The notes: generated by a model not told the origin, from the letters alone. A DNA stretch of 11,143 bases from Minisyncoccota bacterium (GCA_035546615.1 DASZWM010000004.1:1-11143); one strand, 5' to 3'. Positions 1 through 11,143 are shown, numbered from the stretch's first letter. Translations and numbers: made by a program.

Positions 1-188
1 CTGTTCTGCCAAGAGCACGCTCGGTAGCTAAGTCGGGATTGGATAAGCGCTGAAAGCATCTAAGCGCGAAGCCGACTCTAAGATGAGTATTCATTAAGAT
101 CCGTCAGAGATGATGACGTTGATAGGCTCTAGGTGTACGCATCGCAAGATGTTTAGCCGAGGAGTACTAATTGATCGAATTTTCCTTC
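1..188 (+). rRNA. rrl: 23S rRNA, 3'-terminal ~190 nt (partial; gene starts upstream of window)
   Basis: The conserved 3'-domain motifs GCTGAAAGCATCTAAG, GACGTTGATAGGC and GTACTAAT align colinearly with the last ~190 nt of E. coli 23S. The end position is approximate (+/- 10 nt). Confidence 0.85.
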
Positions 189-405
189 CCTTTACAGAGG
201 GAGAGAATCCTTGGGAATCGCAATAATCTGTTGTTCTTTCTTTACCTGGCAGCGCGCTTCGTTGTCGAACTGCGCTTCAAAACGCTCGCCGTACTCAAGT
301 ACGTCTCGCGCCCTGAAGCTTGTTCTCCTAGAATCGCATCTGCCATGAAAAGAAATCTTGTTTTACCTGCGTTTGTGAGTTTCGTTGAGGAGGAGAAAGA
401 AAAAA

Positions 406-648
406 ATGGCAAAATTTGTCATCAGGTACGTTGTGTTCTTCAAATCGCTCTCGAACCGTGGCAGGACCAACCTGCGTCCGGGGAAATCTGTCCGTCCTGT
501 TGCCGCTACTTTTGATGCTTCGGATCTCGAAGCCGGAAAGATTGAAGCGGCTCGGCGATGGGGGGAGTTGAAACAAAAATGGGGAGACGAAATTGAGTTT
601 CGAAACCTCGAACAAGTAGCCCTGGTGGACTGGCGTCCTCAAGGATAA
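406..648 (+). CDS. Hypothetical small protein (80 aa) encoded inside the 23S-5S intergenic spacer
   Basis: ATG at 406 is preceded by a strong SD (GAGGAGGAG, 9-17 nt upstream). The open frame runs to TAA 646-648 (MAKFVIRYVVFFKSLSNRGRTNLRPGK...). A longer version from ATG 385 is possible. No recognisable family. The location is unusual, so confidence in real coding is only moderate. Confidence 0.4.
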   Translation: MAKFVIRYVVFFKSLSNRGRTNLRPGKSVRPVAATFDASDLEAGKIEAARRWGELKQKWGDEIEFRNLEQVALVDWRPQG

Positions 649-652
649 GACA

Positions 653-695
653 AGTCAAGCACGATTGAGAAGTTGGGCACACTTCTCGCTTGACT
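653..695 (+). other. Nested RNA stem-loop in the 23S-5S spacer (candidate processing stem)
   Basis: The outer 8-bp helix AGTCAAGC (653-660) pairs with GCTTGACT (688-695). The inner 7-bp helix GAGAAGT (667-673) pairs with ACTTCTC (681-687) around a 7-nt loop. There is no downstream T-run, so it is not a classical terminator. Confidence 0.35.
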
Positions 696-730
696 CCTCA
701 ATGAAGCTCGCAAATCGATTAAGTTTTTTG

Positions 731-847
731 TCTTGGTGGCTCAACGGTGGGGTCACACCCGTTCTCATTCCGAACACGGAAGTTAAGCCTACTAGTGGCG
801 ATGGTAGTCAGGGTCACACCTGGCGAGAGTAGCTAGCCGCCGGGACA
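731..847 (+). rRNA. rrf: 5S rRNA
   Basis: The ~117-nt element contains the 5S loop motifs CCGTTCTCATTCCGAACACGGAAGTTAAGC, GCGATGGTAGT and GGCGAGAGTAG. Terminal helix I is formed by CTTGGTGGC pairing with GCCGCCGGG. Confidence 0.85.
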
Positions 848-873
848 AAGAACTGAATCTACACAGCATAGCC

Positions 874-8374: not shown

Positions 8375-8785
8375 ATGAAGACCGTCCTTATCGCTATCGC
8401 TGTTGTCGTAGTAGGGGGCGCGGCATGGTGGTTCCTGGCCAAGGAAACCGCTTCCGCACCGACGGTTGCTCGCGCGCCCGAAGTCTCTTGGCAGTATGCT
8501 GATAAGGGCGGAGATGAAACCGGCACGCCGCAGACCGAAGTGAGCGTTACGATCTCGGGCAAGACGAGCCTGGTCGGCACCTACCAGGGCAGATGTGCCA
8601 GTGTTTCGACCTTGGCCGATGGGGAAGTCTCAGGCACCTTGTGCTGGTGGGCGGGCGGCGGCAAGGAACTCGGCGTATTTAACGAGAACGGAAAGTGGGT
8701 GGTCAAAGAAGGCGACCAGGACGAGGGAAGCGGCGATGAGCCCGGCTTCCGCGGCAATTTCAAAACGCTTTTTGAGATCAAATAA
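8375..8785 (+). CDS. Hypothetical small protein (136 aa) with an N-terminal signal-anchor TM helix and a Gly/acidic-rich soluble domain holding 2 Cys
   Basis: ORF starting 10 nt after the secF stop, with a weak AAAGG upstream. Its stop overlaps the start of the next gene (TAATG), indicating translational coupling. No family recognised. Confidence 0.55.
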   Translation: MKTVLIAIAVVVVGGAAWWFLAKETASAPTVARAPEVSWQYADKGGDETGTPQTEVSVTISGKTSLVGTYQGRCASVSTLADGEVSGTLCWWAGGGKELGVFNENGKWVVKEGDQDEGSGDEPGFRGNFKTLFEIK

Positions 8786-9333
8786 TGATAATCGGGATTA
8801 CGGGTTCTTTTGGGGCGGGGAAGGGAGTTGTTGTTGACTATCTCAGCAAGACCAGGGGATTTAAGCACTACTCCGCAAGCGGTTTTATAAAAGAAGAGAT
8901 CGTACGTCGCGGTCTGCCTGTGGATCGCGACTCCATGATACTTATTGGTAATGCCATACGTGCGGAATATGGCCCAGCCTACATCATTGAGACGTTATAC
9001 AAGCGCGCAGAAGAAGCTGGCGGAGACGCGGTCATTGAGGCGTTGCGCGCGGTTGCGGAAGCAAAAAAGATCAAAGAGCTTGGTGGACTGGTTATCGGAG
9101 TAGATGCGGATTCCAAATTGCGCTATGAACGCGCTTTCGCGCGCAAAAGCGAAAAAGATAATGTTCCGTATGACAAGTGGCTTGAGCAGGAAAGAATAGA
9201 AAATAATGCCACTGACCCGACGAGGCAGAATATCTCCGGTGCCTTGAAAGAATCCGACGTAATCGTAACCAACAACGGCACGCCGGAGGAGCTTTTTGCC
9301 CAGGTAGAGGAGGCTTTGCAGAAAATCAAATAA
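8785..9333 (+). CDS. P-loop nucleotide/nucleoside kinase, NMP-kinase / dephospho-CoA-kinase-like fold (182 aa)
   Basis: N-terminal Walker A GITGSFGAGKG. An H-Y-S-A-S-G segment resembles the adenylate/cytidylate kinase HxS(T)GD block. RYERAFAR is lid-like. The C-terminal DVIVTNNGTPEELFAQVEE closely resembles the CoaE C-terminus (DDVIDNNG...). The exact substrate cannot be assigned. Confidence 0.6.
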   Translation: MIIGITGSFGAGKGVVVDYLSKTRGFKHYSASGFIKEEIVRRGLPVDRDSMILIGNAIRAEYGPAYIIETLYKRAEEAGGDAVIEALRAVAEAKKIKELGGLVIGVDADSKLRYERAFARKSEKDNVPYDKWLEQERIENNATDPTRQNISGALKESDVIVTNNGTPEELFAQVEEALQKIK

Positions 9334-9930
9334 ATGGACTGGCATCAGGTTACAGCTTTGATAACGGGCGTTTTGACCCTTGCTGCGGTGGTGCCATACG
9401 TGCGCGATATGCTTCGCGGAACGACGCGGCCCAACCTGGTTACCTGGGGGCTTTGGCTTATTATCCAGACTATTTTTATTTTGGCGCAGTTTAGCGCCGG
9501 CGCCTCGTGGTCGGTACTGCTGCCGCTTATGGAAATGCTCACGGTCGGAATCGTGTTCGTCCTCGGCTTGTTCGGCTATGGGTATAAAAAGTATCGCAAG
9601 CTCGATATTACATGCCTTGGCATCGCGCTTGCGGCCATCGCCCTTTGGCAGCTTACAAGCGAACCACTCGTGGCGCTTTTCATGGCCCTGGGGGCGGACC
9701 TAGTTGCCGGAATCCCTACTCTCAAAAAGGCATATCTCGACCCGATGTCCGAAACGCCGTCAGCTTATTTTCTGGTGTTTATTTCGGCTATTTTCGGAGG
9801 GCTTTCCAGCGCGATTATCGACCTTCCTAACCTCATGTGGCCGGTCTATATCTGCGCTTTCAACGGAGGGGTTTTGGCCCTTATTTTGCTTGGCCGGAGG
9901 GCTCAAAAAGGCCATATTTCCAGGGCTTGA
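9334..9930 (+). CDS. Polytopic membrane protein (198 aa, ~7 TM) with an internal 3+1+3 repeat; PQ-loop / SWEET / Pnu-like topology (hypothetical transporter)
   Basis: ATG lies 1 nt after the kinase stop. Seven hydrophobic segments. The two halves align: AAVVPYVRDMLRGTTRPNLVTWGLWLII with VAGIPTLKKAYLDPMSETPSAYFLVFIS, giving a repeated P-x-x-[RK]-x-x-L-x-x-x-[ST] after the first helix of each repeat. The family assignment is inference. Confidence 0.55.
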   Translation: MDWHQVTALITGVLTLAAVVPYVRDMLRGTTRPNLVTWGLWLIIQTIFILAQFSAGASWSVLLPLMEMLTVGIVFVLGLFGYGYKKYRKLDITCLGIALAAIALWQLTSEPLVALFMALGADLVAGIPTLKKAYLDPMSETPSAYFLVFISAIFGGLSSAIIDLPNLMWPVYICAFNGGVLALILLGRRAQKGHISRA

Positions 9931-9954
9931 CTCCCTAGGGCAGGGGTATATACT
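9927..9954 (+). promoter_or_regulatory. Sigma70-type promoter candidate for the 16S rRNA gene (TTGACT-N16-TATACT)
   Basis: -35 TTGACT 9927-9932 overlaps the TGA stop of the upstream CDS. -10 TATACT is at 9949-9954 with a 16-nt spacer. The predicted start is ~330 nt upstream of the mature 16S 5' end, a normal rRNA leader length. Confidence 0.5.
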
Positions 9955-10051
9955 CTCTATATCACTGCCTTTCGGCGGTTTTTCTTTCGCCTAAACAGCA
10001 ACAAGGAAAGCCCCTCGAGCTATGGGCAGGGGATCCTTGAAAATTGAATAA

Positions 10052-10063
10052 CTCTTCTAACGA
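10052..10063 (+). promoter_or_regulatory. boxA-like antitermination motif in the 16S leader (CTCTTCTAACGA)
   Basis: Resembles E. coli rrn boxA (GCTCTTTAACAA) with one inserted C. It sits within a 7-bp hairpin, TCTAACG pairing with CGTTAGA (10056-10079), in the leader. Confidence 0.25.
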
Positions 10064-10290
10064 GTAATTGAACGTTAGAGGAGGATCACACCGATCTTCT
10101 GCATCTGAGTACAAGGATGCAGGAGGTCAGCAAGCAAAAGAAGTCCTTCCAATATAATTCCACTGGGAGGCAAACAAGGGAGAAGCCCTGTCCTTATTTA
10201 ATTGAAAAATTGAACTGGATAGAAATATTTTTTCTCTTGTTCCGTTCATCGAGTCAAAGGAACGAATGTAAAAGTTCGTCTCTTATAATT

Positions 10291-11143
10291 AGAGTTTGAT
10301 CCTAGCTCAGGATGAATGCTGGCGGCGTGGATAAGGCATGCAAGTCAAGGGGGCCGCAAGGCAACCGGCAGACGAGGTAGTAATACACAGGTACGCACCG
10401 AGAAGTCTGGCATAGCTCGTCGAAAGACGGGGTAATTCCAGATGTTGTGGCGACACCAAAGGAGCAATCCGCTTTTTGAGCGGCCTGTGGAGCATCAGCT
10501 AGTTGGTAAGGTAACGGCTTACCAAGGCTATGACGCTTAGGGGACCTGAGAGGGTGACCCCCACCGATGGGACTGAGATACGGCCCATACACCTACGGGT
10601 GGCTGCAGTCGAGAATCTTCCGCAATGGGCGAAAGCCTGACGGAGCGACGCCGCGTGATTGATGAAGTCCTTCGGGACGTAAAGATCTTTTATGGGGGAG
10701 GAAGTTATTGACGTTACCCCATGAATAAGAGGCTCCTAACTCTGTGCCAGCAGGAGCGGTAATACAGAGGCCTCAAGCGTTATCCGGAATTATTGGGCGT
10801 AAAGGGTGTGTAGGTGGCATTGTTAGTCGTTTGTGAAATATCCGGGCTTAACCTGGAAAACGCGGGCGAAACGGCAGTGCTTGAGTAGGGAAGAGGTAAG
10901 CGGAACTCTCTGTGTAGGGGTGAAATCCGTTGATATAGAGGGGAACACCAAAAGCGAAGGCAGCTTACTGGTCCCTCACTGACGCTGAAACACGAAAGCG
11001 TGGGGAGCGAATGGGATTAGATACCCCAGTAGTCCACGCCCTAAACGATCTTCACTAGCTTTTCAGAGTATCGACCCTCCGAGAGGCGAAGCTAACGCGT
11101 TAAGTGAAGCGCCTGGGAAGTACGGCCGCAAGGCTAAAACTCA
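10291..11143 (+). rRNA. rrs: 16S rRNA, 5' 853 nt (partial; runs off the window end)
   Basis: Starts with AGAGTTTGATCCTAGCTCAG. Landmarks are colinear: CCTACGGG at 302, GTGCCAGCAG at 454, GGATTAGATACC at 724 and AAACTCA at 847 in gene coordinates. There is a constant ~60-nt deficit versus E. coli from shorter V1-V3, and no insertions. Confidence 0.95.

Follow-up and report, generated by a model that had tools for sequence, protein, structure and literature searches.

Separate 23S-5S and 16S rRNA genes on a Paceibacterota contig, with a stem-bounded cassette in the 23S-5S spacer

Ribosomal RNA and protein genes of the contig

The DNA analysed here (the window) is the whole of an 11,143-nt contig, DASZWM010000004.1, from a metagenome-assembled genome (MAG) of 'Candidatus Paceibacterota', a member of the candidate phyla radiation (CPR/Patescibacteria). 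The analysis concerns the order of its ribosomal RNA (rRNA) genes, in which both termini of the contig lie, the protein genes between them, and a small stem-bounded cassette in the 23S-5S spacer. Membership in the CPR and the Paceibacteria was established from the NCBI source name of a window protein and from named SecF homologues, which at 75-84% identity belong to Paceibacterota, Parcubacteria and Ca. Adlerbacteria. An assignment to Planctomycetes, suggested by the 16S, was dropped in view of the protein matches.

All three rRNA genes are on the plus strand. The 3' end of a 23S rRNA gene occupies 1-191 (Rfam RF02541, 145.9 bits, model positions 2721-2925, 5'-truncated) and is 89% identical to positions 2686-2876 of the related contig L087. 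A complete 5S gene follows at 732-845 (RF00001, 75.6 bits), window 717-859 being 99.3% identical to L087. The 5' 860 nt of a 16S gene were found at 10284-11143 (RF00177, 821 bits, model positions 1-903, 3'-truncated), with 85-89% identity to the relatives L088, L090 and L092. A permissive Rfam scan (E≤1) revealed no further RNA genes in the window, and no tRNAs are present. Short-read assemblers typically break in conserved rRNA, which accounts for a contig that ends inside 23S and 16S. The Rfam coordinates confirmed a preliminary description of this DNA, which had noted the odd order of 23S-5S, about 9.4 kb of protein genes and then 16S, all on the same strand.

The end of the 23S (191) and the start of the 16S (10284) are 10,092 bp apart, in the order 23S to 16S, and the genes are thus unlinked in the sense of Brewer et al. 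2020 (ISME J; bioRxiv 10.1101/705046). The gap from 5S to 16S is 9,438 bp and contains a gene on the minus strand, which corresponds to type D, unlinked 'by distance', of Lui et al. 2021 (PLoS Comput Biol, PMC8172020). The 16S is nearer to the 5S than to the 23S and all are on one strand (23S-5S...16S), as expected of Paceibacteria. Two details of the preliminary description had to be revised. It had placed 23S and 5S together at 1-847 with their own terminator; a hairpin with a T-run is indeed predicted at 874-894, but the range hides an unusually long 23S-5S spacer of 540 nt with an eleventh small gene at 406-648. It had also started the 16S, with its own promoter, at 10291. A promoter-like site is present at 9927-9954, but the model start is 10284 and position 10291 is the AGAGTTTGATC motif.

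Ten protein genes lie between 5S and 16S and span 916-9930, nine on the plus strand and one, a GT4 glycosyltransferase gene, on the minus strand; gene and Pfam annotation agreed in this with what had been described. The first gene, g1 (916-1668, +), encodes an unassigned membrane-anchored protein with no Pfam or NCBIfam match, in which an alignment of relatives showed the Cys-rich motif PTCFDG..N..E.GIDCGG.C. In this clade the 5S is usually followed by g1, and g1 nearly always by ftsW. The g1 product has an N-terminal transmembrane segment. A -10-like TACAAT lies at 904-909 and there is no Shine-Dalgarno (SD) sequence, which suggests that the g1 mRNA may be leaderless.

The second gene (1678-2817, +) belongs to the FtsW/RodA family (SEDS; PF01098, E 4e-89) and is syntenic in nearly all related loci. 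It is followed by the GT4 gene (2823-3800, -; PF13439 and PF00534), on the minus strand in relatives too, and by a gene for a Bac_transf sugar transferase of the initiating phosphoglycosyl transferase type (3857-5212, +; PF02397, E 1e-51). The next gene (5221-5943, +; PF02882 and partial PF00763) encodes a short, divergent FolD-like protein of 240 aa. It is about 40-50 residues short in the N-terminal catalytic domain, and its best NCBIfam score was 118.6 bits against a cut-off of 401 (cut-offs 333-537). Since the same 240-aa form was found in L087, the short form is conserved and the gene is not a pseudogene. The genes secD (6067-7449, +) and secF (7451-8365, +) were identified by their Pfam SecD/SecF domains, secF having homologues up to 89% identical. 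The block ends with a small unassigned gene (8375-8785), a gene for a P-loop kinase-like AAA_17/18 protein (8785-9333) and a gene for an unassigned membrane protein (9334-9930), all three on the plus strand and partly syntenic in L087, L088 and L092.

Conservation of the order and signals of the two units

A profile search with g1 returned 398 metagenome relatives, from which 80 loci were fetched and annotated; a single-protein scan of genome contigs returned three distant loci alone, at 42-43% identity. Four close relatives with SecF 79-86% identical were examined: L087, a 170,684-nt contig from an unrelated Joint Genome Institute (JGI) metagenome, and L088, L090 and L092, which are contigs of 489-750 kb. 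All four show 23S-5S, then 9.8-13.7 kb of genes, then 16S. L087, whose SecF is 86% identical, is colinear with the entire window at 74-99% (23S tail 89%, 5S 99%, genes 74-80%, and also the 16S leader and the 16S). Ten more distant loci have 5S and 16S on one strand and 6.8-10.3 kb apart, the 16S being downstream, 0.3-1.9 kb past secF. The order 23S-5S...16S was thereby recorded in L003, L022, L024, L026, L046, L049, L056, L060, L072, L084, L087, L088, L090 and L092.

The block 23S-5S-g1-ftsW-...-secDF-16S is kept across dozens of contigs, and its proteins are merely 31-56% identical across loci. Because the order has been retained over such divergence, the split of the rRNA genes looks, from these comparisons, ancient and stably inherited and not a product of recent decay. 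An ancient split bears on the debate whether unlinking reflects neutral drift or is maintained. Sequence upstream of g1 reaches 300 nt or more in 68 loci, and in 50 of these a 5S lies just before the gene (median gap 143 nt). This adjacency is common, not universal, since Rfam detects no rRNA upstream of g1 in L007, L008, L063 and L076. Furthermore, the gene block is retained with no 16S within 3.6-6.4 kb after secF in L004, L063, L065, L071, L076 and L083. As some sub-clades thus keep the block with no nearby 16S or with no upstream rRNA, the arrangement is clade-typical with variations.

The regions upstream of the 16S were aligned, first for 11 genomes and then for 5 close relatives. The putative 16S promoter, TTGACT-16-TATACT (9927-9954, +), is the best sigma-70-like site in the window (10/12), and the 16S leaders of relatives have a conserved CTTGAC-N17-TATAAT in the corresponding position. 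In the leader that follows on the plus strand, the leader alignments showed a hairpin with a T-run (9964-9989), a GC hairpin (10011-10033) and a boxA-like ATCCTTGAAAATTGAATAA (10033-10051). A GC hairpin followed by a boxA-like motif of the (G)TTCTTTGAAAA type is kept in both the 16S and the 23S leaders of relatives. The names boxA and boxB are given by analogy with the rrn leaders of E. coli and B. subtilis, which these elements resemble. About 40 nt before the 16S lies the element TTCTCTTGTTCCGTTCAT (10232-10249, +), invariant in the 5 close relatives and near-invariant in the 11 genomes. It is complementary to ACGGAAC(AAGAGAAAG) in the 16S trailers of L087, L088 and L092, and L003 carries matching changes on both strands; the element is the predicted 5' strand of a leader/trailer helix.

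The 23S genes of relatives have a promoter, a hairpin and a boxA-like TTTGAAAAnTnAAT leader of their own, and the 16S promoter of the window (GGTATATACTCTCTATATC) and the 23S promoter of L009 (GGTATATACTCCCTATATC) are nearly identical in the -10 region. The window trailer of the 23S (192-268, +) is predicted, from its pairing with the L009 23S leader, to be the 3' strand of a leader/trailer processing helix that serves the 23S only. When the L009 leader was paired with its own trailer the dG was -84.2, compared with -31±4.5 for shuffled sequences, and the corresponding values for L003 were -55.7 and -18±3. The L009 leader paired with window 186-268 gave -55.1 (shuffles -31.9±3.1). As a control, the 16S leader of the window was paired with its 23S trailer, and this was no better than shuffles. 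After the 5S the window has an intrinsic-terminator-like hairpin, CGCGC-CGTGT-GCGCG with T6 (874-894, +). Of 62 loci, 39 have a hairpin with a T-run in the first 120 nt past the 5S, most often at +40 to +50. The rRNA genes are thus arranged in two units, each with what is predicted to be a complete set of rrn-type signals.

In both 16S and 23S leaders, the rRNA promoter and the boxA-like element are separated by a terminator-like hairpin with a T-run (16S leader of the window, 9964-9989; 23S leaders of L004, L009, L012, L040, L049, L060, L065 and L084). Several of the 23S leaders have, further upstream, an AGCGG that could base-pair with the 5' arm of the hairpin, CCGCT. The leader hairpin could be an attenuator, or it could simply be a boxB-like hairpin.

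It is very probable that the window shows the normal rRNA layout of its lineage, in which presumed single-copy rRNA genes are divided between two transcription units on the same strand. The first unit would comprise 23S-5S, with a promoter and leader upstream of the contig, a processing helix for the 23S only and an end at the terminator 874-894. The second would comprise the 16S, about 9.4 kb downstream, with its own sigma-70 promoter, a hairpin and boxA-like antitermination leader and its own leader/trailer helix. The two units would be transcribed independently, each would be processed by RNase III, and similar promoters and leaders may keep the output of 16S and 23S in balance.

Several points weigh against this interpretation. 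The flanks of the window lie outside the contig, and a second rRNA copy may be present elsewhere in the genome. The promoter, the boxA, the terminator and the processing helices are all predicted from sequence, and a terminator-like hairpin (9964-9989) lies just past the predicted 16S promoter. Moreover, the closest relatives, L087, L088 and L092, have no clear hairpin with a T-run after the 5S by the criteria used, so that read-through from the 5S into g1-ftsW is possible.

The possibility was considered that the locus is a permuted operon, in which one transcript begun at the 23S promoter would carry 23S-5S, the protein genes and the 16S, and the rRNA genes would be physically spread yet functionally linked. 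All three rRNAs and nine of the ten protein genes are on one strand, widely diverged relatives retain the order, and the lack of an obvious terminator after the 5S in the closest relatives would be explained. However, the window itself and many other loci have a terminator-like hairpin at that place, the GT4 gene in the middle of the block is on the minus strand, and a strong conserved promoter with a boxA-type leader is positioned directly upstream of the 16S. In addition, the block is kept in the six loci named above in which the 16S is elsewhere. Co-transcription of the whole locus is therefore considered improbable.

The preliminary description had also allowed that a second operon begins at the 16S. 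The window would then be the tail of one ordinary 16S-23S-5S operon and the head of another in tandem, and, because it is cut inside both rRNA genes, the window alone does not decide against this. The flanks in relatives do. No 23S was found within the 4.7-6.8 kb downstream of the 16S in L087, L088, L090 and L092, where there are tRNA and protein genes. No 16S was found upstream of the 23S in any of the 15 loci that reach the 5' end of the 23S (477-6456 nt upstream covered). In these 15 relatives the canonical 16S directly before the 23S is thus absent (the window itself starts inside the 23S), and the 23S is adjoined by protein genes, such as NDK/GIY-YIG and MscS-like genes in L003 and L004. 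Circularized Paceibacteria genomes carry one unlinked set in the same order (Lui et al. 2021, PMC8172020), and the predicted 23S leader/trailer helix encloses the 23S alone. The second-operon reading is refuted in relatives by these flanks, tandem operons in the window are very unlikely, and the alternative offered in the same description, that the rRNA genes are unlinked, is supported by the same 4 downstream and 15 upstream flanks.

Least probable of all is a chimeric contig joined at conserved rRNA or within the gene block: false joins at rRNA genes are common in metagenome contigs, and this contig has rRNA at both ends, but the order is common to dozens of independent contigs, and the earlier worry about such a join is removed by the end-to-end colinearity of L087, from a different JGI metagenome, and by Logan contigs from another assembler (SRR12170516; L001, L006 and L005), which cover 779-2070, 2041-6849 and 7236-10320 and include the 5S-g1 and g10-16S junctions. 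Exact matches to window proteins came solely from short Logan contigs of SRR12170516, a run that appears to contain the same population.

Other observations were made on the rRNA genes and their surroundings. In L094 the genes rplJ-rplL, further genes and an MscS-like gene stand just before the 23S (L094 851-3838), the MscS-like gene being present in L004 also, and an L10 leader lies upstream of the 23S in L060 (3-144) and L084 (1621-1766). The 23S genes of relatives contain group I introns (L088 1105-1345; L004 4530-4769 and 5163-5399), and in L090 a LAGLIDADG open reading frame (ORF) lies just past the annotated 16S (16488-16922); the visible parts of the window 23S and 16S are free of such insertions. 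A 93-bit match to RF02500 (Atu_C6/EcpR1, an alphaproteobacterial small RNA family) was found at L087 578-689, within roughly 670 nt of inserted sequence in this Paceibacteria 23S gene. In the window 16S, the site of the 515F primer (window 10730-10765, 16S 505-530 region) reads GTGCCAGCAGGAGCGGTAA instead of ...GCCGCGG..., and the changes are compensated upstream (GGCTCC...GGAGC). By the pairing scheme of the E. coli 16S, the 505-507/524-526 pseudoknot is thereby preserved. Among relatives the pairing covaries between two types, GCTCC/GGAGC and GTTGC/GCAGC. The window 16S would have mismatches to standard 515F primers.

The arrangement also has consequences for assembly. For many close SecF homologues the longest contig measures about 11-12 kb, which matches the length of the stretch from 23S to 16S. 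In short-read assemblies this block of about 10 kb drops out as a stand-alone contig, and it seems to be recovered regularly as an orphan with rRNA fragments at its ends. This helps to account for the frequent absence or mis-binning of rRNA genes in CPR MAGs. The order 5S-g1-ftsW...secF-16S is offered as a rule for scaffolding.

The cassette in the 23S-5S spacer

The spacer between 23S and 5S contains a stem-bounded cassette of 337 nt (375-711, +), which was recognised by its inverted repeat, its minimum free energy (MFE) fold and covariation. Window 341-716 replaces 33 nt of L087 and is a lineage-specific spacer insertion. The left arm (GTGAGTTTCG-TTGAGGA, 375-391, +) is followed by the strong SD sequence GAGGAGGAG, an 80-codon ORF (406-648, +; NCBI VHD55_02075), a hairpin (654-694, +) and the right arm (TCCTCAA-TGAAGCTCGC, 695-711, +), which pairs with the left arm. 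The 17-bp stem 375-391/695-711 is used in the MFE fold (z = -3.5). When the stems of 5 distinct elements were compared, 85 of 85 cells were paired and 7 of the 17 pairs had changed on both sides; slid controls were 40-48% paired. A '5S processing stem' was considered for this stem and rejected, as the element is absent from L087 and most 23S-5S spacers. A DNA-level transposon, bounded by terminal inverted repeats (TIR) as in a miniature inverted-repeat transposable element (MITE), was considered too. It is less likely, because the arms of the window copy pair on the plus, rRNA-sense strand only, via G.U pairs, and because the inner, not the outer, part of the repeat is conserved.

The ORF appeared to be an orphan when a word-indexed protein search returned a self-match only. 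This was overturned by an exhaustive phmmer search, which found the full-length homologues P0122, P0123, P0124 and P0126 (81-88 aa, E 5e-10 to 2e-5). The ORF belongs to a rare unannotated small-protein family in CPR rRNA-operon insertions, with the common motifs MxKYVMRYVxFV and EFRSLEQVxPVxWxP. Codon-position differences of 0.45/0.40/0.65 in the family (synonymous divergence, dS, is saturated) are as expected of a genuine coding sequence. Searches of Pfam, PHROGs and NCBIfam gave no match to the family. The Pfam family of S23p (23S_rRNA_IVP, PF05635) and the Pfam families of homing endonucleases and intervening sequences (IVSs) did not match it either, with two unrelated hits alone at E 0.14-0.15, one member each. 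AlphaFold on the single ORF sequence gave a predicted local distance difference test score (pLDDT) of 56. The protein P0125 (1826 aa), in which six stretches match weakly, has no Pfam domain. The group I catalytic core, RF00028, was detected neither in the window (E≤1) nor in the insertions of L099 and L103 (gathering cut-off) or of L060 and L084 (E≤0.01), and the permissive scan of the window gave no Rfam family match to the cassette.

All homologues of the ORF lie on the sense strand within insertions of CPR 23S genes. At 23S reference positions 1279-1293, L094-L098 and L104 have 363 nt inserted in place of about 13 nt. The flanks of this insert, ACCGAAGCUGCGG...GGUAGGAGAGCGUUC, place it in the helix-45 region by their identity to the E. 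coli sequence. In L099-L103 the cassette is nested in a larger insertion located exactly between 23S reference positions 2711 and 2712. The architecture common to all copies is N10-UUGAGGA, SD, ORF, a GCCAAG...CUUGGC hairpin and UCCUCAA-N10. A scan of 860 kb of retrieved sequence revealed three further cassettes, all with tRNA-like genes in place of the ORF, and none was found in shuffled sequence. The cassette of L012 (7216-7490), in a 23S-5S spacer, carries two tRNA-like genes (47.7 and 29.6 bits), one with a 4-nt anticodon call. Those of L060 (7453-7730) and L084 (8586-8964) are at the 23S site 2711/2712 and carry, instead of an ORF, tRNA-like cargo and a tRNA-Val(GAC) gene (8695-8770), respectively. 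The presence of tRNA genes embedded inside a 23S gene, as in L060 and L084, is unusual.

It is tentatively proposed, with somewhat more doubt than confidence, that these elements form an undescribed class of stem-bounded cargo cassettes in CPR rRNA operons, which occupy at least three sites, carry either an ORF of 80-88 codons from a new family or tRNA genes, and would be cut from the pre-rRNA like an RNase III IVS with release of the cargo. The stem would be cleaved as that of an IVS is, and the cargo mRNA or pre-tRNA would be freed from the most heavily transcribed RNA of the cell. If this is true, expression of a tRNA or a small protein could be tied to rRNA synthesis where split operons have lost the tRNAs of the 16S-23S spacer. 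If excised and expressed, the cassette would be a new cargo-carrying type of insertion in the already unusual CPR rRNA genes. It is the one item of the window that merits a specialist's second look.

Comparison with known systems

IVS sites are classically 23S helix 9, 25 or 45. The window cassette has the complementary termini and long stem (17 bp) of an RNase III-type IVS, but it lies in the 23S-5S spacer and not at a 23S helix tip, while the copies in L094-L098 and L104 sit in the helix-45 region. In Coxiella burnetii the helix-45 IVS encodes S23p and is excised by RNase III (Warrier et al. 2016, PMC4990558). CPR rRNA insertions, including probable IVSs, were surveyed by Tsurumaki et al. 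2024 (PMC11270868) with ORFs annotated via Pfam only, and the main text makes no mention of spacer, operon, unlinked or tRNA. In common with ORF-bearing 23S IVSs such as that of Coxiella, and with the probable IVSs of the CPR, the cassette is about 340-370 nt long and sporadically distributed, its complementary ends form a long stem, and the loop holds an ORF. Homologous copies replace the tip of the helix-45 region (L094, L104). It differs in that its ORF belongs to a different, unannotated family (no PF05635 match) and the window copy is in the spacer. Further differences are that other copies sit inside larger insertions near the 3' end of the 23S, that tRNA genes can take the place of the ORF as cargo, and that excision of the cassette is a prediction. 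The cassette thus resembles an IVS, and by these comparisons would be an undescribed variety.

The unlinked order as such is already known for Paceibacteria, since it has been documented for this group by Brewer et al. 2020, who found the Patescibacteria among the clades with exclusively unlinked rRNA genes, and by Lui et al. 2021. In the latter study (PMC8172020), 27 of 34 circularized CPR genomes were unlinked and protein genes were noted in rRNA spacers. The SSU-LSU (small to large subunit) rRNA distances of Paceibacteria, one per circularized genome, were 6,492, 9,070, 11,595, 11,721, 11,833 and 16,399 bp (S1 Table). The preliminary description was right to call unlinked rRNA genes a known arrangement, and it is documented for this very class; the rRNA order itself is one more case of a documented clade-wide trait.

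As in the published Paceibacteria (Lui et al. Fig. 3D and S1 Table; Brewer et al.), 23S and 5S are together in the window and the 16S is apart, on the same strand and nearer to the 5S. The separation of about 10 kb falls among the published ones (6.5, 9.1, 11.6-11.8 and 16.4 kb), one intervening gene is on the opposite strand, and the taxon is the same. Nothing essential differs; what is added here is the conserved block g1-ftsW-GT4-Bac_transf-folD-secDF and the predicted separate promoters, boxA-like leaders and helices. No published description of the identity of the conserved block or of the duplicated leader architecture was found in a limited literature search.

The window shares with the unlinked rRNA genes of Thermus/Deinococcus, Planctomycetes, Rickettsiales, Helicobacter, Buchnera and Wolbachia a 16S transcribed apart from 23S-5S, as predicted here, and a low rRNA copy number, as presumed here. 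Those lineages belong to other phyla, however, their distances are usually much larger or variable, and they have no common intervening gene block. The canonical rrn operon of the E. coli rrnB type has the same components as are predicted here, namely a sigma-70 promoter, a leader with a hairpin and a boxA-type element, leader/trailer helices around each large rRNA, a 5S after the 23S and a terminal terminator. In contrast to that operon, the layout described here lacks both a 16S before the 23S and a tRNA-bearing 16S-23S spacer, and the predicted leader module is duplicated, one for each unit.

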